Part shown: positions 1-50,733 of the stretch, one piece after another | Layout of the letters: each line of letters opens with the position of its first letter | How positions within the stretch are numbered: position 1 is the stretch's first letter | Assembly: GCA_048213135.1 (NCBI GenBank) | Contig: PS015016.1 | Span: 192,681-244,910 of the forward strand | Length of the DNA stretch: 52,230 bases | Direction of reading: 5' to 3' | From: Reclinomonas americana ATCC 50394 | Lineage: Eukaryota | Made by a program: the position numbers and the translations under genes | Notes under the pieces: generated by a model | Database searches by the model: none | Seen by the model: only the letters and a program-made list of their open reading frames with translations | Told to the model about the DNA's origin: nothing

Positions 1-78
1 GAGCGAGCACGAGCGATGTAAATAAACAACCAGTGAGTACAACACCTGCCATGCAAACGCAGAGTGGCGCAACGCAAC

Positions 79-930
79 ACTGTGCGTATGAAAAAAAAAT
101 TCAGCCACGACTGTCAGTCAGGTACAACAATTGCACGCAAGGGCTGAACAAACGCAACGCTATGGAGGCACCGAAAAGCGAGCCGCGGAAACACAAACGG
201 GATGTCAGTCTCTCACTGCACAAGAACACCGCACTACTCGACAAGACGCAACACTGTGCGAAAAAACACACGTGAGCACAATGAGACAAATACAAAAGAC
301 GGCAAGCACATCTGACTCACACTACTCGCGCGTGTGAGGCGGAGAGACGGTAAGTTCCCGAACAACGAAAGGAGCGATGCGAAACTGAAAAAATGAACGC
401 AACGCATGTGTGGGCCACCTGAATCGCAACGAGAAACACAGTGAGCACTTTGTGCACAAGCAAGCAAACTCACATAAACAGAGAAGGGGAGTCTCACCGG
501 TAGAGTCTCGTCACTGGCGTGTCCTCCGAACCGGTTGATGGTGAATGGACAGTCCCCTGCATAATGTGCGTGAGCAACACGCGCAGAGACCGCATGATAT
601 TCACTGTCAAAGAGTTCGCAACACTGCCAACAAGTTGTCGTGAGCAGAGTGAGATACACACAGTCGATAAGTGCACGACTTGGAACGCAACAGAATCGTC
701 GTTCGGCGGCAGGCGATTGCGACCCCACACCTGCAGCACACAATTCTCGTGAGGTCAGACCATTCTTTAGAGGAAATAATGTACTCCTGGTTACAACGCA
801 ACAAAGCCTGCAGATGCACGCACTGCATTGTTAGCAACAACGTATCACGCACGAACAGAACACAAATGACGCAACGAAGGAACAGCTGGCGCTCCTCGGC
901 GGTGAAGGACTGCAGCGCACGCCACAAGTA
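79..930 (-). CDS. HERC-type HECT E3 ubiquitin ligase, C-lobe part 1 (partial; on an apparently inverted contig)
   Basis: Minus-strand exons 930-876, 807-803 (5 nt), 730-692, 623 (1 nt), 556-498, 418-404, and 1-nt exons 321, 253, 159, 79. All have AG/GT boundaries and splice to YLWRALQSFTAEERQLFLRFVWGRNRLPPNDDSWDCPFTINRFGGHASDETLPVAHTCF(F), the HECT C-lobe with the catalytic Cys. Confidence 0.9.
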
Positions 931-1542
931 CTGCACGCTCACGCGATTAGCAGGAGCGTATGCAACAGTTCCTCTATCAGCCTGACCTGTCTCCGTGCCG
1001 AAATGATCTGTGCCTCTCTCTCTCACTCTNNNNNNNNNNNNNNNNNNNNNNNNNNNNNNNNNNNNNNNNNNNNNNNNNNNNNNNNNNNNNNNNNNNNNNN
1101 NNNNNNNNNNNNNNNNNNNNNNNNNNNNNNNNNNNNNNNNNNNNNNNNNNNNNNNNNNNNNNNNNNNNNNNNNNNNNNNNNNNNNNNNNNNNNNNNNNNN
1201 NNNNNNNNNNNNNNNNNNNNNNNNNNNNNNNNNNNNNNNNNNNNNNNNNNNNNNNNNNNNNNNNNNNNNNNNNNNNNNNNNNNNNNNNNNNNNNNNNNNN
1301 NNNNNNNNNNNNNNNNNNNNNNNNNNNNNNNNNNNNNNNNNNNNNNNNNNNNNNNNNNNNNNNNNNNNNNNNNNNNNNNNNNNNNNNNNNNNNNNNNNNN
1401 NNNNNNNNNNNNNNNNNNNNNNNNNNNNNNNNNNNNNNNNNNNNNNNNNNNNNNNNNNNNNNNNNNNNNNNNNNNNNNNNNNNNNNNNNNNNNNNNNNNN
1501 NNNNNNNNNNNNNNNNNNNNNNNNNNNNNTTCGCACATGCAG

Positions 1543-2232
1543 TGTTGCGTCTCTCGTAATCTGCTTTCTAACTGCCTCGATTGTGTGTCACTCACTTGGT
1601 CGTTTCTTGCATGTCCTGCAGCTCGGTTCGGCTGTATTTTGCTGTCTTTGTGCATGCTGAATATCTGTTGTGTGATTTGAGTGCTCACCTGTGCCACCTG
1701 CAACTCGCCCGGTTCGATGTGCACAGCTCGGTGAGTGCAGTGTTCTTTTTGAGTCACGTGATGGTGATTCTGATGCGGTTCTTGGTGGGGGAACGTGCAG
1801 ACTTGCCGGAGTACACGTCGCAAGATGTGCTGCGCGAGCGCATCCTGTTTGGTGTGTGTTCTTGATGGGCGACGTTGTTGTATTTCAAATGCATTGCTAA
1901 ATTTGTTGTTTCTCCAGCCATTGTCAACTGCCAGGCCATCGATACCGACTTCAATCCGGAGAGGTGAGGAGTGTTGTGAAGTGTGTTGTGTGTTTAATTG
2001 TGACTTGGCTAACTCTGTTTGTAACACACAGCTCTGCGTGCGTCGCATCGTGTCACGCACATCTTCTGCGGTGCTTGCTTGTTCCTCACATTTTTTTGTT
2101 GTTGAATGTTGCTGTACACAGCTGGTATGTTATCGTCCAAGAGGGTTGGGAAAAGGTGTAAGGTTGGCAATAGTGAGTGTGTGTGACGGTTCTTCTCGTG
2201 TGTGCAGGTTGGATGCCGGTGTCGAGGAGTGA
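1543..2232 (+). CDS. HERC-type HECT E3 ubiquitin ligase, C-lobe part 2 (C-terminus)
   Basis: Exons 1543 (1 nt), 1622-1625, 1727-1730, 1801-1851, 1918-1963, 2032-2037, 2122-2124 and 2208-2232 give (F)SLDLPEYTSQDVLRERILFAIVNCQAIDTDFNPESSAWLDAGVEE*. This matches the HERC1/2-like terminus LxLPxYxS...LxYAIxNCxxIDxD. Confidence 0.9.
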
Positions 2233-2788
2233 GCAGGTACAGGTGGACGTTGAATGGGAGGAACACGTGAAAAGATCAACAATGAATGCCATGGTTATAC
2301 TCTTTGTGACGTGATGGGAGAGGAGATGGTAACAGCTGTCTTGATGACCAAGTTCAAAACATCACACAAACACTAGTCTTGAGGACAACAATAGACAGTT
2401 CACTGATCCAGTCTGGAGATCCACACACAACAATGAGCATCTACCAGTGATCGCCAACAAGTCCCGTGTGCTTTCCTTCTACAACTAAAACTGTTAAAAG
2501 TGTGTTATCGATGTTGAGAATATAGCCCTATTCAGCACACACTGCCACCAGGCCAAGAAGAAGACTTCGTCAGCAGTGATTGCTAGTTACCGATTGGAAG
2601 ACGTCCATCGCAGTAACAGCAGGTTTCTTGTGTCTCTCACACATCTCACACACCATCGACAATGGGCGTGACAAAGGGAACAACACGTGCAGCAGTCTTC
2701 CCCTGCGCACTGACGTCCTCCTCTGGCAAACCTCATGCAAGAAAGAAGCAAATTTTCGCAGCGTGTCATTTGTTTGTTTGTTTTTGTG

Positions 2789-3404
2789 ATGGCGGAGGAA
2801 GAGCAGTACTTGTTCTCGAAAGAGTACTATGCTAACTTGCTTGCCCGCATCAAGGCGTTTGCTGAGCGTGCGAGTCGAAAAGTCTATCGGGACCACAAGC
2901 GCAGTTCGACTGTGACTGTGTTTCCTGGAGATGACTACGGTGGCGAGTATGATAATGCGGGAGAGGAAGTGGAGGTGATCGAGGACTCGGTTGGTGGCGA
3001 TCGTGATCGCGAGGTCGATGGCGGCTATCTCAGTGACTGGCCATGGGGCGAGTGCGCCAAGGACTCCACAGTTACGCCCTGCTCTCGCATTGTATGTGTG
3101 CCTCTCTCTCTTTGTGTGTGTGTGTGTGTATGTGCACGTGTGTGTTGGTGGTGGTGGTGTGCGTGTGTTGGTGGTGGTGGTGGCGGTGTGTTGCAATTGT
3201 GTAAAGATATTGGTTGCATTTTTCTGTGAACAGAGGCATCGTGCGGGCATGGCTGGTCATGAGCTTTTCAAGGTCGCTGCAGCTGCCAGTGCGGTAGCAA
3301 GTGTGCTTGATCATGAAGCTCCTTCGAATCCGGATCCACTGCCGGCGCTACATCCCGTCGATTTGCCACCAGCGTTGTTGCGTGACTTACTGATGGCACA
3401 TTGA
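2789..3404 (+). CDS. hypothetical protein (two exons)
   Basis: MAEEEQYLFSKEYYANLLARIKAF... open reading frame, a GTATGT donor near 3092, a GT-repeat intron, then a second exon ...RHRAGMAGHELF...LLMAH*. No family recognised. Confidence 0.5.
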
Positions 3405-5593
3405 TCTCACGCACACACACACTCTCGATGAGTGTTTCTGCTTGGCTGTGTGTGGTCTGTCGATCGTGGACCACACGCTCGTTGTCGATGTGTACAGGAA
3501 AGAAGAGTGTGCCCCAGCATCTCTTGCGCATGCCTGTTTGTTTCTTTGTGCTCGTGCGAGCGCCTTCATGTTTCTCCCTCTCTCCCTCTCTGTGCGATAT
3601 TTTACGCGTGGCGCGCACACACTCACACACCGCAGAGAGAGAGAAACAGCGTCGCTCTCGCGTTGTGCAAGTGTTGTCTCAAAGTGCCAGTTTTCTCTGC
3701 TTCTTTCTCTCCGTTTCTCCCACAGTTATTTTGCTTTGCCTGCACACACAAACACACACACGCTCAACTTTGCGGATGAGATCTAGAGTGCGCAGAGCGT
3801 GGCAAGTAACTATCTACGGTGTTGGTGGGTTTCCCATGGTCTGATCGAAGTGTGTAATATTTCCAAATTTGGCAGATCCTTTAAAGCTTTTGCCGGTATG
3901 TTGCATGATTTCTCTCTTCACGCATGCATGCACTCGCACGCTGTTCTTCCACATAAGAGAGAGAATGAAATTGATAGTACACACCACGGTGGATGTGTGT
4001 GTGTGTGTGTGAGTCTCTCNNNNNNNNNNNNNNNNNNNNNNNNNNNNNNNNNNNNNNNNNNNNNNNNNNNNNNNNNNNNNNNNNNNNNNNNNNNNNNNNN
4101 NNNNNNNNNNNNNNNNNNNNNNNNNNNNNNNNNNNNNNNNNNNNNNNNNNNNNNNNNNNNNNNNNNNNNNNNNNNNNNNNNNNNNNNNNNNNNNNNNNNN
4201 NNNNNNNNNNNNNNNNNNNNNNNNNNNNNNNNNNNNNNNNNNNNNNNNNNNNNNNNNNNNNNNNNNNNNNNNNNNNNNNNNNNNNNNNNNNNNNNNNNNN
4301 NNNNNNNNNNNNNNNNNNNNNNNNNNNNNNNNNNNNNNNNNNNNNNNNNNNNNNNNNNNNNNNNNNNNNNNNNNNNNNNNNNNNNNNNNNNNNNNNNNNN
4401 NNNNNNNNNNNNNNNNNNNNNNNNNNNNNNNNNNNNNNNNNNNNNNNNNNNNNNNNNNNNNNNNNNNNNNNNNNNNNNNNNNNNNNNNNNNNNNNNNNNN
4501 NNNNNNNNNNNNNNNNNNNNNNNNNNNNNNNNNNNNNNNNNNNNNNNNNNNNNNNNNNNNNNNNNNNNNNNNNNNNNNNNNNNNNNNNNNNNNNNNNNNN
4601 NNNNNNNNNNNNNNNNNNNNNNNNNNNNNNNNNNNNNNNNNNNNNNNNNNAGGCCGACATTATACGGCACACCAATCACTCCGCTCTGCTCATGCCGTAC
4701 TTCATGTGCTTGAAGAGAAATGTTAGTTGCTTGAGTTTTCTTTGCTCAAATAAGCAAAATGAAAGAAGAACGAGTAGGAGACAATACTTATGTCGACTGC
4801 TCGTTCTTCACTTTCAGAAACCATAGTATACCATAAGTAACTAATTAAGCTGCGACAGCGGCTCCATGGCCAGGCGCTAACGGAAACCGTCCTAGGCCTG
4901 CTGCGCCATGATGCTAGCGCTGCGCAGCCGCCACACCAATTGCAGTCCAGTGCTGGCAGTCTCGAGAAGACATTGGGGCACAACACGGTATCAGACCGGC
5001 GGACATATCGCAACGTCTTTTCGATGGGAAGATGCTGATTGTTGTGTGCATGCGTGCAGACTTGTCGGTGCGCAGTGTGTGCGTTGAGCTGCATTCGTGG
5101 TGGCATGTATCACTTGGCCCAGTTTTCTCGCGAGGCAACAAGCACTGCGGCTGGCAGCAACAACGTTGAAACAAGGGGCTTCTGGAAGGAGATTGACGCC
5201 TGCTTTGTTTGAGAGCAAAAGAAGAGCGAAAACGAACAGGACAACTGAATGAAGTGGTGGTTCCTGCTGCCTGGTCGTATCTCACTCTGAAAACCTAAGT
5301 ATACCAATCGGACTAGCGACCTGCGGAGGTCGGTAGTCCCGATCCACACAATTGCAACACATGTAATACAACAAAAACCCGCGGCCGGACCCCATCTACA
5401 AATTGTTGTTGATTTCTCGTGTGCGCTGGCATTTCGAATTCAAAGCGCTGCGGATTGGCGACCTTCGCAATACAGTTTTTAACATGGACTGCAGTGAAGG
5501 CCGCATGTTTGTCGTTTTCGGAATGCCACCAAATCCACAGTCCACCCAAGTGACCAAAAACGCAATCACAGTGTTTCTCTTTCCACACGCAAC

Positions 5594-8055
5594 ATGTCAC
5601 AGAAAGTCCAAGAGCGTCATCAGAAGATCCTGCGCGATCTTGTGCAGCTTCCCGACAACCGCCGTTGCTTCTCGTGCTCCACTCGAGTTGCGTCATCTGC
5701 AACAGTTGTCGACGCAGTACGCACACACACACACTCTCTCTCTTGCTCTCTGTACATTCCCTCCCCTGTCAGTGCTCTCTCTCTAGAGACAGAAAGAATG
5801 TGTGTGGACACACCCAATTTGCGTGTGTTGCTCATGTCCACACCATCGTCGCTCGACACGCGCACACACGCAACACACACGCGCGCGCTCAGCCGCTTCT
5901 GTGTGTACGCATGAGCACGCGTGTCTCTGCGCGTGTGCACCACGCGCGCGGTTTTCTCTCGCTCTCTTTCTCTTCACACTGCATCACATTGCGTGGGGTT
6001 GTCAATGCCCGCCACCACTCGCGCGCGCACACACGCCCACACTCTCGCTCCCTTCCACTGATGCGTGTTTCTCCTCTCGCCGCGCACTCGTGTTCTCCTG
6101 CCTGCACACTTGTGTTGTGAGAGTTCTATTTTTCTTGCAAGCTCACATCCACGCCACACACACACGCGTTCACAGGGCAACGTGTACGCGGTGCTGCCGT
6201 TCAACATCTTTGGTTTGTTGTCTACTTGCTGCCTAGAGGTAAACCTCCTCCCCTCGCCACGTCATTGACTCATATCTCCTGCTGTGCAGTCTGCACGCAC
6301 TGTGCCGGCATTCAGTTTCGTCTGTTTCTCGTCCTCGGGAGTCGCACTGTTGGCTTACTGTCTGTGTGTGTTTGTGATAGCCGCAAGTTCACCAACCACC
6401 GCGTCAAGGGCATTGGTATGGCCAATTTTACCCCCGATGAGGTCAAGGCGCTGCAGGAGGGCGGCAACAAGGTCTGCTGGAGCTCGCTGACTTCGCGCGC
6501 TCTCTCAATCTATCACACTCACCACCACCTCTCCTCTCTTTTGTTTCTTTATTCATAGGTCGCTCGCGATGTCTGGCTCGGCCAGCTGAAGGACAGCGAC
6601 ATTCGTCTGCCCGACCCCAAGGACGATCGGTTCGTATTCGGCCGCCCCTTCTCGTTGTTCATGCACTGATCTCTCTGTCTCGTTTGCAGTCTGATCGAGG
6701 CGTTCATTCGGAGCGTCTTTGAGCAGAAGCGCTACTACCGCGAGCCAGGAGAGGGTGGCTCGGGCGGCTTTGACGACGATGTTGCGTCGCACGCATGCAT
6801 CACAGAGTGAGAGGATTCTTGTGTTGCTGATCGTGACGCAGGGTGAGGTCGATTCCATTCCGCAAGCCGACGTCCGCGAAGTCGTGAGGGAGCTGCCAAA
6901 GCTCCATGTTGCGTCTTCCTGCTCTATAACGCGCCCTTGCGTCTTTTATGCTCATGAGAACGAGCAGGTGTCGGATCCGGGCACTCGCCCCCGCTCTGGC
7001 TCGGGCCGCAAGATGCAGCTCGGCGGTGGAGGTGGTGGTGCTGGTAGCTCTGCCACACACGCTCGTCGCGATCACTCGCCCGAGAAGCCGGCGGCCGCGG
7101 AGAAGCCAGCTGCCGCAGCCGGTGGCAAGAGCGGTGGTGTTGCGTCACTCGTGCACAAAGTTGGTTTATCGCAGCAGATGATTGACATGTGCATGTTTGG
7201 CTTGCAGGATGATCCATTTGGATTCTTTGATGGCCCCGACCCGCATGCCAGCGCCGCCAAGGCACCTTCGGCGGCCGTGGCTGGTGAGCATGCGTCATAT
7301 CACGCGCGATACATAATGTCCACTCACGTGTACTTGTTGCAGGTCTTGATGAGTTTGACGCCGCGTGGGACGATGATGGAGTGCGTCGTCGCATGTTTTT
7401 GATTTCATGTTGGCGCTTGCTTTCACTCACTTCGTCTGTTCTGTCCAGGCTGCGGCTGCGGCTTCGGCAGCACCTGCCAAGGACAAGAAGTCGATTGTGT
7501 CGGATCTGTTCAAGTCGGTGAGTCGCTCCCTCTCTCGTTTTACCACTGTACCTCTCCCTTCCTCTGACACATGAAATCAGATGCCGGGTGGTGGCTTTGG
7601 TGGTGGTTTTGGCGGTCAGGCGGCACCCTACGGCGCCAACCCGTACGGCGCGCAAGCCAATCCCTACGGTCAACCGGCTGGCGGCAACCCCTACGGCCAA
7701 CCGGCCGGTGGCAATCCGTACGGACAGCCGGCTGGTGGTAACCCCTACGGGCAGCCGGCTGGCGGCAACCCGTACGGCCAAGCTGCGGGTGGCAACCCAT
7801 TCGGCGGAGCTGCTGGCGGCAACCCGTTCGGTGGTGCTGCCGCAGGCGGTTACAACATGCCGCAGCAGGCCAACCCCTACGGCGGAGCCGCGCAGGGTGG
7901 CAATCCGTTTGGTGGACAGCAGGCGCAGGGCGGCAATCCGTTTGGTGGTGGTGAGTTCCATTTCTGTCCATTTTTTCCTGTCTTTAATGTTCTCGTACTC
8001 ATGTCAGTTGTCGCCAGACATGGGTGGCTTTGGCGGTGGCTACCCGCAGCAGCAG

Positions 8056-10915: not shown

Positions 10916-11056
10916 NNNNNNNNNNNNNNNNNNNNNNNNNNNNNNNNNNNNNNNNNNNNNNNNNNNNNNNNNNNNNNNNAATTGTACATCGAGACGACTG
11001 ATCGACAGACAGACGGACTCATCGCACTGTTTCTTTTCAGTGTCTTTGTTGCGCGC

Positions 11057-27947: not shown

Positions 27948-29061
27948 ATGGCGATTGGGTGAGTCGCCAGACAGACATAACAGACAGGTGGCAGAGGGCA
28001 GACGCAGGAAGCGCACTGGCGTGTGCGTGTGGCGGTGGTGCGGGTGTGAGGGAGAGAGAAGTGTGTGGGCATGAACACATGCGCATGTCGGTGCCATGCA
28101 TGGCGCACAGCCCCTCTCCTCCCTTCTCGCCCGCCTCCCTCCTCCTGTGCACACGTGTATATGCGTATGGGTGGTGGAGAGGGAGAGTGCTCCAGTGCAA
28201 CACGTGCACTTTCTGCGAGTGTGAATGTGTGATTGATTGATGGAGACGATGGATGTGTGTGCGCTTGAGACTGCTGCCTCTCTCCCTCCGTCCCTCTCTC
28301 TCCCTCTCTCTTTCTTGTGCTCTTGTTGACAGAGTCACACGCACGACTTTTCCGCACACTGTGCCATGATCAGATCTCTCGATCACACCCGTCATCTTAC
28401 TTTCTCTCTCCAATCCCCATAACCCAGCATGCTCACCACTTGTGCGCCCTCCTTCCTCCTCCCATTAACAGAAAGAACCCGATGAAGAGCAAGTACACCA
28501 AGAAGGGGTCGAAGAAGAAAGTGTTGCGTGCCATGGCATGTCTGCTGTGCTCACTCGCTGCGCACTCACCCTTTTCTTCCCCTCCTCTCTTTCCTTCTTG
28601 GTTAATCGCCGCCAACAGCATTGACCCCTACTCACGCAAGGTGCGTTGTTTCTGTCGTTTGCTTGAGAATCTTAATGGAAGAGACTCGGGGTGTCACTCA
28701 CACTCGGTCTGTGCAGGAGTGGTACGACATCAAGGCCCCGGCTGTGTTCCGCGAGCGTGAGGCGTGCAAGACCATTGTGAACCGCACTGCCGGCACCAGT
28801 TGCGTCTGCGTGTACAGGGGGAAAAAGAGAAGCCGAATTGGGGCTAATCGCGCTTGCTTGCTTGTCCACAGAGATCGCCTCTGAGGCGCTGAAGGGCCGC
28901 GTGTTCGAGGTCAACCTCGGCGATTTGCACAAGAACCCCAACCTCGGCAACCGCAAGATCAAGCTGCGCGTGGAGGACGTCCAGGGCCGCGCCTGCCTCA
29001 CCAACTTCTACGGCATGGTGTTCACCACTGATCGCCTGCGCTCGCTCGTCCGCAAGTTTCG
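27948..29061 (+). CDS. RPS3A: 40S ribosomal protein S3a/eS1 (N-terminal part; remainder lost at gap)
   Basis: [36 protein letters not shown]...[29 protein letters not shown]...[36 protein letters not shown]. Confidence 0.97.
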
Positions 29062-36252: not shown

Positions 36253-37277
36253 ATGGAAGATGGGGTGGTGGAGTCGGCCATGGAGCTCTTCTCCAGCACA
36301 TGCGAGGCCGAGGCCACTGCTCTCCCACCAACACCAGCAGTGGTGGTGCTGAAACGAACACCAGCGCGCGTTGTGCGTCGATTGTATGCTTTGCTGAGTG
36401 CATTGGATCGCGTGTTTGGCGAGGTGCGTGTGCGCGTGTGTGTGGACGCGATGCACAGTACGGTGCGGTTAAGCTCGATCGCTCAGCTGGGCATTGCGTA
36501 CTGGGCGACGGGAGGCACGATCTTGGGCGCGCTCCGACATGGTGGTCTCATTCCGTGGGACGATGATGCAGGTGCGAAGAAGGCGGATCGACGCGAGTGG
36601 TCGTCTGTGTGCTGATTGATGATCGCTGGCAGACATCTGTGTGTTTGATACGGTGGTCGAATCGCTTCTGTTGCCGCATGCACGACCGCGATTGGAGCAC
36701 GAGCATGACAGTTGCTTCCATCACCGATCCTTGCTTGTCTTGCAGCTTCCGTGCTCAATCGCGCAGTTCGACTGGTGGAGGCACCGTTCGGGTGGCGCGC
36801 GTTTCATGCTGTCGAGTCCGACGAGATTGTCGAGGATCCGCTGGCGACGCATCGCTTCCCGTTTGTCGATATTTGGGTGTTCACCGACGGCCCGCCACGC
36901 AAGCGGTGTCGATTGGCGGTGAAGAGCAGTCGCGTGTGTTGGCCACATGAATGGCTCGGGGCGTCTTCTCCTTCTGCGTGCGGAGCTTGATGTGGGTGAG
37001 CTGACACTAATGCAGGTTTGAGAACGATGGTGTCGCGCGTGCCGAGCGACGCTGCTTTGGCGATCTGCACGTGCCGGTGCCGCTCGACGCCGAGGCATAC
37101 CTCGATCGGTACATTGGCGAGGAGTGGCGCGAGTGGGGTGCGTCGCCCACCTACGATCACATTCGACGCAAGTGGACAACTCCCGTGCGCTTCCGACTGC
37201 AACCGCAGCACTTGCGACCGGCATCCACACGCGACGAGGACGACGACGATGATGATGTGCTACGCGATGCATTATAG
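36253..37277 (+). CDS. LicD-family (fukutin/FKRP-like) nucleotidyltransferase
   Basis: [32 protein letters not shown] and VPVPLDAEAYLDRYIG. The start codon is uncertain (36214 is possible). Confidence 0.88.
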
Positions 37278-37515
37278 GCAACTGTTTATGATTCTTCCTC
37301 TTCTGTGTGTGAGCCGGCGTCCACACGCGACGAGGAGGACGACGACGACGACGACGATGATGTGCTACGCGATGCATTATAGGCGACTGTTTATGATTCT
37401 TCCTCCTCTGTGCGTGAGCCGGCATCCACACGCGACGAGGACGACGACGACGATGATGATGTGCTACGTGATGCATTATAGGCGACTGTTTATGATTTTT
37501 CCTCTTCTGTGTGAG
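37218..37515 (+). repeat. tandem triplication of about 100 bp spanning the LicD stop codon
   Basis: Units start at 37218, 37314 and 37419: ccggc(a/g)tccacacgcgacgagg..gatgatgtgctacg(c/t)gatgcattatagg...gtgag. Confidence 0.95.
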
Positions 37516-48581: not shown

Positions 48582-49719
48582 AAAAAGCAATCTGTCGCCA
48601 ACAATCATCCGACACGGACAACTTGCCGCCGCTGCGAGTTGAGCCGACCACAACATGGCACACGCCGCGCACGTGCAAAGCATGCAAGTCGCGCTCTATC
48701 GCCTCCTGCAGGCCCAGTCTGTCCACGTCGCCAGCAGTGTCTGGAATGCAGCAGACCACACGAGTTGTTTGCGGCTGGATTCCTGCATGCCACACACACG
48801 ATGATGAATGCGTTAGTTGTCTTCACCTAACAAAACAAAAAGAGTGTGGCATGCATAAGCTGCAAACCATGATGCCGGCGCAGGCGATCGATTACTGGCA
48901 GCAGTTCCGCAGCTGGGCGGGAGCCTCGACCGTCGGCCAACCAAAAGAGCACAAGGTGATCATCTGCTTTTTCAGTGGTCCGCTCCTTCTCGCCATCAAC
49001 GACCTCTCGAGCCTGTTCCTTCTCGCCATCCTCATGATCAGCATGGTCAGTCACACACGTCTCCACGGCCTCCAGAGCTCGCTCCTTCTCGCCATCCTCA
49101 GCATGGTCAGTCACGCTCGTCTCCAAGACCTCCAGAGCTCGCTCCTTCTCGCCATCCTCAGCATGGTCAGTCACGCTCGTCTCCAAGACCTCCAGAGCTC
49201 GCTCCTTCTCGCCCTCCTCAGCATGGTCAGTCACGTTCGTCTCCACGGCCTCTCGAGGCCGCTCCTTCTCGCCCTCCTCAGCATGGTCAGTCACGCTCGT
49301 CTCCACGGTCTCCCGAGCTCGCTCCTTCTTGCCCTCCTTGACATGGTCAGTCACGCACGTCCGCACGGCCTCCCAAGCGCGCTCCTCCTTGGAATTGTCG
49401 AGCCAGCGAACTTGAGAGGTCGGCACCTTTCTGCGTTGCAAGAAGTGCTCCCCTCGCTTTTTTGCCTTTTTTGCACGAAAGCAAGGTGCCTGTGCGAATG
49501 CACATCAGCGTCACGGACAGGTTGGAGAGAGAGAGAGAGAGTAGAAGTGGTGAGACGCACCAGCCGATCGTGTTGCACAAGCACGTTGATCACAGTACGA
49601 GTGCGCTCAACGACGTTGACCACTGGCAACTCTACATCTCGATCTGGCTCATGACTGTGATCGGGGGCCACGCTATGTGAGATGCTCAACTTGCCAAACT
49701 GCTCGGTGAGATTGCGCAT
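48556..49719 (-). CDS. hypothetical protein with 20-aa tandem repeats (partial; ends uncertain)
   Basis: Minus-strand ORFs with repeated ERALEVLETSVTDHAEDGEK. Probable last exon 48556 to about 48785. Confidence 0.45.
48982..49390. repeat. 60-bp minisatellite, about 6.5 copies
   Basis: gctccttctcgcc(a/c)tcctcagcatggtcagtcacgctcgtctcca... recurs at 49081, 49141, 49201, 49261, 49321 and 49381, with degenerate copies upstream. Confidence 0.95.
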
Positions 49720-50733
49720 GTCGNNNNNNNNNNNNNNNNNNNNNNNNNNNNNNNNNNNNNNNNNNNNNNNNNNNNNNNNNNNNNNNNNNNNNNNNNNNNN
49801 NNNNNNNNNNNNNNNNNNNNNNNNNNNNNNNNNNNNNNNNNNNNNNNNNNNNNNNNNNNNNNNNNNNNNNNNNNNNNNNNNNNNNNNNNNNNNNNNNNNN
49901 NNNNNNNNNNNNNNNNNNNNNNNNNNNNNNNNNNNNNNNNNNNNNNNNNNNNNNNNNNNNNNNNNNNNNNNNNNNNNNNNNNNNNNNNNNNNNNNNNNNN
50001 NNNNNNNNNNNNNNNNNNNNNNNNNNNNNNNNNNNNNNNNNNNNNNNNNNNNNNNNNNNNNNNNNNNNNNNNNNNNNNNNNNNNNNNNNNNNNNNNNNNN
50101 NNNNNNNNNNNNNNNNNNNNNNNNNNNNNNNNNNNNNNNNNNNNNNNNNNNNNNNNNNNNNNNNNNNNNNNNNNNNNNNNNNNNNNNNNNNNNNNNNNNN
50201 NNNNNTCAGTGGCGGGTTGCTTGCGCTCGCGCCCAGCCTGGCAGTGCGTGTTCTAAGTGAGATTGCCACGAATTCATCACATCATCAACTTCACCAACCT
50301 CGTCGTGCTTCGCTGTACGGTTCCCCATCGTGTGTGGTATGCTGCGCACTTGCTGCGTCAACTCGGGAAATGGTGCGTTTCGGATCCCACTCGTGGTGTG
50401 ATCCGCCGGATTTGAAATACACCATGTCCGAAATCAGTTGACAATATCTGCCTGGTCGATTTCCATTCAGTCACATTTCCTTCCTTCTCGGAGCGCAGAC
50501 AAACAATCTCACCAGTAAGCCATGGGAGGCGGTCAATCGGTACGCCCCGTTTGCATATGACACCACAGGTCGGCAGACTCACTCACGACTTGACATGCTG
50601 ACAGCGATCACCATCGCCATCACCGCCGCCATCACCGCCGCCGTCACCACCGCGTCGTCGAGCGGCGCCACCACCACCACCGCCGCCGCCACCTCCGCCT
50701 CCACCACCACCAGTTGTCCGCGCACCCAGCCCC

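Follow-up and report, generated by a model that had tools for sequence, protein, structure and literature searches.

A predicted run of single-nucleotide exons at the active site of a HECT ubiquitin-ligase gene in Reclinomonas americana

Introduction

Exons of a single nucleotide (nt) have so far been reported as isolated curiosities: a constitutive one in Arabidopsis APC11 (Guo and Liu 2015; PMC4674806) and, more recently, one in the Fusarium CYP621A P450 genes, which its authors call the second example only (Nelson and Syed 2026; PMC12940212). Here, we describe six predicted exons of this kind, five of them consecutive, at the 3′ end of a predicted HECT ubiquitin-ligase gene that opens a 52,230-nt stretch of the genome of Reclinomonas americana ATCC 50394 (GenBank assembly GCA_048213135.1, contig PS015016.1, forward-strand positions 192,681–244,910; this whole stretch is herein referred to as the window, and all coordinates are positions within it).

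The resemblance to APC11 lies in the arrangement of one base between two canonical GT-AG introns, a base that is needed for the reading frame and, in the APC11 case, had been missed by annotation (PMC4674806). In APC11, however, the 1-nt exon stands on its own and its use was demonstrated by cDNA and in reporter assays (PMC4674806), whereas the HECT gene, as predicted here from its sequence, would have six, five in succession, with one codon distributed over three exons. The CYP621A exon resembles those described here in how it was recognized, namely from exon phase together with a conserved motif, and in the position of its base inside a conserved codon; it is nonetheless a single exon, kept in 20 orthologues and confirmed in SRA reads (PMC12940212), whereas the HECT chain is predicted from one sequence. 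The plant microexons of 1–15 nt are likewise ultra-short coding exons that lie in conserved domains and are missed by annotation (PMC8831610; MEPDB, PMC12409088), but the sections of those papers available to us treat small internal microexons in general and contain no runs of consecutive 1-nt exons (PMC8831610; PMC12409088).

A literature search that did not extend to subscription journals or supplements turned up no case of several 1-nt exons in succession. Recursive splicing makes use of zero-length exons, at which AG|GT ratchet sites divide long Drosophila and human introns and no base is left behind. The HECT locus shares with it a 3′ splice site directly beside a 5′ splice site and a stepwise order in which the upstream exon is used again as the 5′ exon; it differs in that one coding base would be left at each step and in that its introns measure 66–101 nt rather than being very long.

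Results

Layout of the HECT locus

The window starts with a 1,029-nt contig, which is followed by 500 N (1030–1529) and then by unbroken sequence, and consecutive parts of a single HECT C-lobe are obtained by reading the minus strand of 1–1029 and then the plus strand of 1530–1967. Approximately 285 coding nt of this C-lobe are split by 14 introns (one per 20 nt), all of them short (66–101 nt) and of the ordinary spliceosomal type. The predicted micro-exons comprise six of 1 nt (T623, T321, T253, C159, T79 and T1543), two of 4 nt and one of 5 nt, and the remaining exons around them are 15–59 nt long. In coding order, the predicted features of the locus are as follows.

876–937, minus: HECT C-lobe exon, (V-Q-)Y-L-W-R-A-L-Q-S-F-T-A-E-E-R-Q-L-F-L plus the first base of the next codon
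808–875, minus: intron of 68 nt, GTTGCG...CAG, branch motif CTAAC
803–807, minus: 5-nt exon GCTTT, in unbroken sequence; with the preceding C it encodes Arg-Phe
731–802, minus: intron of 72 nt, GTTGCG...CAG, branch motifs CTGAC and CTCAC
692–730, minus: exon V-W-G-R-N-R-L-P-P-N-D-D-S, read from the sequence
624–691, minus: intron of 68 nt, GTTGCG...CAG, CTCAC twice
623, minus: 1-nt exon T, first base of a TGG (Trp) codon, in unbroken sequence
557–622, minus: intron of 66 nt, GTTGCG...CAG, branch motif GCTCAC
498–556, minus: exon GG plus D-C-P-F-T-I-N-R-F-G-G-H-A-S-D-E-T-L-P, read from the sequence
419–497, minus: intron of 79 nt, GTGAGA...CAG
404–418, minus: 15-nt exon V-A-H-T-C (GTGGCCCACACATGC), whose end falls exactly at the catalytic Cys
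322–403, minus: intron of 82 nt, GTTGCG...TAG
321, minus: 1-nt exon T, TAG/T/GTGAGT
254–320, minus: intron of 67 nt, GTGAGT...CAG
253, minus: 1-nt exon T, CAG/T/GTTGCG
160–252, minus: intron of 93 nt, GTTGCG...TAG
159, minus: 1-nt exon C, TAG/C/GTTGCG, third base of a TTC (Phe) codon
80–158, minus: intron of 79 nt, GTTGCG...CAG
79, minus: 1-nt exon T, CAG/T/GTTGCG
1–78, minus: 5′ part of an intron, GTTGCG, with CTCAC at about 37–33 and no AG up to the contig end
1030–1529, no strand: run of 500 N between contigs that hold consecutive gene parts on opposite strands; the N count gives neither the true length nor the content
1530–1542, plus: 3′ end of an intron, ...CGCACATGCAG
1543, plus: 1-nt exon T, CAG/T/GTTGCG
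1544–1621, plus: intron of 78 nt, GTTGCG...CAG
1622–1625, plus: 4-nt exon CTCG, read from the sequence
1626–1726, plus: intron of 101 nt, GTTCGG...CAG, its donor two mismatches from GTTGCG
1727–1730, plus: 4-nt exon CTCG, read from the sequence
1731–1800, plus: intron of 70 nt, GTGAGT...CAG
1801–1851, plus: exon AC plus L-P-E-Y-T-S-Q-D-V-L-R-E-R-I-L-F plus G (ACTTGCCGGAG at its start), read from the sequence
1852–1917, plus: intron of 66 nt, GTGTGT...CAG
1918–1967, plus: last coding exon A-I-V-N-C-Q-A-I-D-T-D-F-N-P-E-R and TGA stop at 1965–1967, at the end of an open reading frame (ORF) spanning 1866–1967

A preliminary description of this locus had listed the 15-nt exon, five one-base exons (321, 253, 159, 79 and, on the plus strand, 1543) and the two CTCG exons. 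On re-reading of the sequence all of its coordinates hold, as do the branch-point-like CTCAC/CTGAC and the YAG end that it attributed to each unit; the units between the single bases also have strong donors (GTTGCG or GTGAGT). The tandem arrangement of candidate one-base exons is confirmed in the sequence, and it is extended here by a sixth 1-nt exon (T623), the 5-nt exon at 807–803, the TGA at 1965–1967 and the need to flip 1–1029. The introns around the one-base exons had been given as 67–93 nt long; they are indeed short and ordinary, but that range was slightly too narrow, the actual lengths being 82, 67, 93, 79, at least 91, 78, 101 and 70 nt.

Identity of the encoded protein

The locus is best explained as the 3′ terminal part of a genuine HECT ubiquitin-ligase gene in an intron-rich eukaryote with a GC content of ∼58%. 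The larger exons are all open and keep HECT motifs. Profile and PDB searches were performed with unjoined single-exon translations as queries: one of four gave a weak match to Pfam HECT (PF00632; score 13.0 bits, where the gathering cut-off is 23.9; E = 0.081; profile positions 211–236 of 306), and in a phmmer search of the PDB the translation of exon 876–937 matched the C-lobes of HUWE1 (6fyh_A, E = 0.11), HECTD3 (9r85_A, residues 772–795, E = 0.26) and TOM1 (E = 0.11–0.65 overall), while the three other exon-bearing translations gave no HECT match in the PDB. This exon could start at 930 (acceptor GTGCAG) or at 937 (acceptor GTGAG), and the start at 937 is favored because the HUWE1 and HECTD3 C-lobes have V/I-Q ahead of the aromatic residue. 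Protein word-index searches with exon-bearing ORF translations (P0001, residues 82–121, against proteins of near or greater length; P0002, residues 20–59, against longer ones) returned one to three word-sharing candidates, none with E ≤ 10; an exact look-up of four candidate single-exon proteins of the window found none in the protein collection; an exact scan of metagenome contigs with 33-nt exon stretches gave 0 matches; and the ESM Atlas gave no usable match to a neighboring ORF of 380 amino acids. A search for RNA sequencing runs, made with positions 1–4019 of the window, listed none. The 5′ portion of the gene (the N-lobe and E2-binding region) lies outside the window.

Around the active site, V-A-H-T-C is read directly from exon 418–404, and the HECT loop His-Thr-Cys-Phe becomes complete only when T321, T253 and C159 are joined to it. 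Most HECT ligases have His and Thr before the catalytic Cys and a functionally important Phe after it (HTCF), HECTD3 itself having S-T-C-S, according to a HECTD3 study (PMC13018541), which also identifies the conserved Arg and Ser of the HECTD3 G-R-S-R-L-P region as R795 and S796; the exon at 692–730 of the present locus reads V-W-G-R-N-R-L-P. The modeled tail extends 37 residues from the catalytic Cys to the TGA at 1965–1967, within the ∼32–38 expected for HECT, and in HECTD3 the catalytic Cys is C823 of 861, that is, 38 residues follow it (PMC13018541).

The TGA overlaps a good donor, GTGAGG at 1964 on the plus strand, and 1964–2231 of the same strand contains intron-like units and open exon-like pieces, including CAG-CTCTGC-GTGCGT at 2029, with another TGA near 2231 as their end point. 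The protein could conceivably continue past 1967 to a longer C terminus; the usual length of the HECT tail speaks against it.

Restoration of the reading frame by the predicted micro-exons

At three independent places the larger exons do not share a reading frame, and in each case it is the micro-exons that bring them back into register. At the first, between ...L-F-L and V-W-G-R, we enumerated chains of up to three GT/GC-AG introns of 30–400 nt; the chain with two GTTGCG donors adds Arg-Phe, at a position where the phmmer alignments show F-L-R-F-V in HECTD3 and F-L-Q-F-V in HUWE1, the Phe being conserved. Use of a GTGCGT donor at 852 would instead insert eight residues, R-C-V-I-C-V-L-F, six more than the model. 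At the second place, between ...N-D-D-S and D-C-P-F, a single 135-nt intron (691–557) is out of frame, and the chain through T623 is the shortest, and the sole one with two GTTGCG donors, among the 27 of 102 chains that are open and in frame. No conserved residue is tied to T623, and the 66-nt unit 557–622 on the minus strand is itself open and in frame with the next exon, such that its retention would add 22 codons.

The third place lies between the catalytic Cys and L-P-E-Y. The usual HECT motif has five residues between Cys and L-P; the preliminary description had given the HERC-type form as xxTCFFxLxLPxY. The seven micro-exons here amount to 13 nt, enough for Phe-Phe-Ser-Leu and the G that opens an Asp codon, and T321, T253 and C159 spell the Phe after the catalytic Cys as one codon over three exons. 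When introns of 45–135 nt are enumerated with the gap set to zero, any GT-AG pair being allowed, the chains that keep no more than 22 nt number 2,874, 21 of them keeping 13 nt; with donors at most two mismatches from GTTGCG or GTGAGT and with YAG acceptors 615 remain, and an open, in-frame reading is given by 224 of them. The shortest two of these retain 13 nt, and only the one proposed in the preliminary description uses the best donors throughout, giving F-F-S-L-D; its concatenation of the micro-exons after Cys, with the frame restored into L-P-E-Y, agrees with the sequence. The uniform chance that 13 nt spell F-F-x-L plus G is ∼2e-5, a figure softened by the freedom to choose chains.

The flanks of the 500-N gap carry complementary rather than identical parts of the HECT domain, which makes a pair of head-to-head paralogues unlikely. 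Nor do these flanks contain an inverted duplication. On the simplest reading, the assembly carries the 1-kb contig 1–1029 back to front; the intron with its 5′ end at 78 would then run to 1542 and measure 91 nt (78 + 13) plus the true gap. Any extra exons in the gap would have to total a multiple of three nt and would lengthen the catalytic loop. In all, nine runs of N, of 20–631 N, occur in the window (1030–1529, 4020–4650, 10916–10979, 49724–50205 and five of 20 N).

Intron signals of the HECT units

Its surroundings elsewhere in the window mark GTTGCG as a true donor type of this genome. Outside the HECT locus, the GT-hexamers most often followed by CT[ACG]AC and YAG at 50–112 nt are GTGAGT (19 of 62) and GTTGCG (18 of 64), compared with a background of 852 of 6,414. 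This donor usage fits neither Euglena (donor consensus GTGTG) nor the six diplonemids of an earlier study, whose donors are (G)/GTATG or non-canonical (PMC12621601). A gene for ribosomal protein S3a (∼28,480–29,056, plus strand) uses the GTTGCG donor twice: the two exons that border its GTTGCG intron at 28,799 align to neighboring segments of the Pfam Ribosomal_S3Ae profile (14–37, E = 1.7e-4; 36–95, E = 8.7e-21), and removal of a 96-nt GTTGCG intron of the gene yields the boundary K-K-K-V/I-D-P-Y. The HECT units share lengths and branch motifs with the S3a introns.

The HECT introns are not copies of one another, since the best pairwise local score among 16 introns is 25 and the maximum in 300 shuffled pairs is 27, and no repeat copy of them occurs elsewhere in the window. 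Intact signals in mutually unrelated introns are most simply explained by continued use. The 15 nt spanning two of the one-base exons are identical at 72–86 and 246–260 (152–166 matches at 73%).

At all six sites, exactly one base lies between AG and GT, which distinguishes them from recursive zero-length sites. Nor are the units stwintrons, as they lie side by side, each with its own donor and acceptor, and their joined flanks create no new GT or AG. Each of the six sites has one base between two complete canonical introns, with the intron between T79 and T1543 spanning the gap.

The clustering of these sites exceeds chance. AG-N-GTTGCG occurs seven times on both strands of the window, compared with 3.14 expected from shuffles, and five of the seven fall on the coding strand of the 1,467-nt HECT locus, where 0.044 would be expected (Poisson P(≥5) ∼1e-9); six composite sites of YAG, one base and a strong donor lie within 1.47 kb. 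A wider scan of the 52 kb, for YAG, 1–8 nt and then GTTGCG, GTGAGT or GTGCGT, with a donor and branch motif upstream, recovered nine sites, seven of which are in the HECT gene, one just 3′ of its stop and one elsewhere. The GTTGCG hexamer itself is found 75 times in the window (50 ± 7 expected), with 11 of the 75 in the HECT locus, a 12-fold local excess, and nine of the 14 HECT introns begin with it.

Further observations on the window

GTGAGT and GTTGCG donors, counted from window position 2400 and above, differ at four of six positions; the two hexamers may reflect two modes of donor recognition or variant U1/U6 contacts. A search of the window against Rfam gave 0 matches, and the window thus holds no snRNA gene to account for the GTTGCG donor. 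The S3a gene has exons of 23, 82 and ∼185 nt and introns of ∼62–96 nt that begin with GTTGCG, GTGCGT and GTTGCG; a further donor, GTTTCG, is probably present at ∼29055, and a pyrimidine-rich stretch and AG precede its first visible exon. Within the 15-nt junction stretch of the HECT locus, CGCA could pair with UGCG in a stem of 4 bp that encloses the exon base, and RNA folding of 420–1 is unremarkable (z = −1.69). An ORF-continuity screen for independent introns returned 10,952 candidates and was too noisy to use.

Tandem repeats within ORFs are found at 49038–49386 (60 nt × 5.8, 90% matches), at 37218–37511 (105 nt × 2.9) and at 7658–7825 (27 nt × 6.2, encoding G-G-N-P-Y-G-Q-P-A, beside a long poly-Gln run), and runs of CA and CT dinucleotides are common between genes.

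Discussion

We consider it probable, at roughly 65%, that the mRNA of this gene is built through the full chain of exons, including the six of a single nucleotide. Under intron definition, the donor, branch site and YAG of each intron would together mark it as one unit, and neighboring introns would be removed one after another, every removal step leaving one base on the growing upstream exon. Stepwise removal is suggested because a U1-type contact on a donor one base past an acceptor would be incompatible with recognition of that acceptor. That splicing is strictly intron-defined and sequential, as the preliminary description had proposed, may reasonably be inferred from the layout. The model further supposes that contig 1–1029 is mis-oriented and that the intron starting at 78 ends at 1542.

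Several points weigh against this reading. The chain crosses the 500-N gap and needs contig 1–1029 to be flipped, and the gap could hide more units or a conventional exon; the HECT identity was obtained with short exons taken singly, whose matches are weak (Pfam E = 0.081; PDB E = 0.11–0.65); and the wider YAG-donor scan revealed no other gene in the 52-kb window with such exons. The donor GTTCGG at 1626 is the weakest of the chain. At the first place of frame restoration, 152 of 867 chains give an open in-frame reading, and one of these, which removes a single intron of 140 nt from the weak donor GTCATT, would yield Arg-Cys; the open in-frame chains at the second place (27 of 102) include retention of the 66-nt unit 622–557. 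The exon after T623 opens with a GGGG run, where homopolymer errors in the assembly would weaken the frame argument for T623. At the third place, the second 13-nt chain, via acceptor 46, a 2-nt exon and donor GTTGTA, gives F-V-S-L-D, and partial skipping of micro-exons may keep the frame, one CTCG alone giving C-L-D-L-P.

Alternative chains of this kind form the basis of an explanation in which the introns are real but the mRNA differs, with micro-exons skipped, weaker sites used or 622–557 retained, such that fewer 1-nt exons would exist. Although open in-frame possibilities are available (the F-V-S-L-D chain, one CTCG alone, and the retention that adds 22 codons with no stop), they rely on weaker donors (GTCATT, GTTGTA) or lose or gain residues beside the catalytic Cys, and the five-residue spacing from Cys to L-P would be broken. 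They would also lose the Phe after Cys, described as functionally important in the HECTD3 study (PMC13018541), and we regard this explanation as unlikely. A broken or decaying gene seems slightly less likely still. Here, 1–1029 would be truly inverted, with a breakpoint in an intron, or the locus would be a pseudogene, and the array would be an unspliced relic, as the opposite strands of the two halves in the assembly, the absence of the upstream gene part from the window and the lack of a matching transcript or protein record in the collections searched could suggest; the larger exons are nevertheless all open with HECT motifs, donor, branch site and acceptor are kept in 14 of 14 introns, no inverted duplication is present, and a 1-kb contig beside a gap is a classic setting for an orientation error.

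The missing sequence at 1030–1529 invites the idea that a conventional small exon hidden in the gap encodes the residues after Cys and that the units are parts of two longer introns with decoy sites, all the more as other gaps vary in length (20, 64, 482 and 631 N), so that 500 may estimate real missing sequence. Five perfect YAG-N-donor junctions in a functionless intron interior would, however, arise by chance at ∼1e-9, the units keep complete signals without mutual similarity, the visible single bases already read Phe-Phe in frame, and T623 and the 5-nt exon show a like architecture in unbroken sequence; taken together, these make a hidden exon quite improbable. We give least credence, and very little, to the units being copies of a mobile intron-generating element (introner) that landed repeatedly at a hotspot. 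The GTTGCG start of nine of the 14 introns, the 12-fold local hexamer excess and the 15-nt junction motif identical at 72–86 and 246–260 are what such an element might leave, but the pairwise intron scores do not exceed those of shuffled controls (25 vs. 27), no copy occurs in the rest of the 52 kb, neither terminal inverted repeats nor target duplications are visible, and the proposal concerns the origin of the exons rather than their use.

As to how the full chain of micro-exons arose, the local excess of GTTGCG introns and their common junction motif hint at local propagation, while the dissimilarity of the intron sequences would argue against recent duplication or an introner family. Tentatively, and as something we would not expect to be correct, we suggest that repeated local seeding of introns next to splice sites already in place, with reverse splicing of excised introns as one conceivable route, shredded two Phe codons, leaving introns that would be defined without exonic information and removed in an enforced order, one base per step.

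If truly spliced, the HECT gene would represent the most extreme exon fragmentation that we have found described and a new extreme of single-nucleotide exons. Splice-site choice would then work without exonic context, repeatedly and accurately; the order in which introns are removed, and the steric limits between adjacent splice sites, could be studied on a naturally occurring substrate; and a mechanism focusing intron gain on a single place would be suggested. Gene finders and RNA-seq aligners, which are unable to place exons of 1 nt, would meet a hard test in this locus, and such genes would be annotated as broken.

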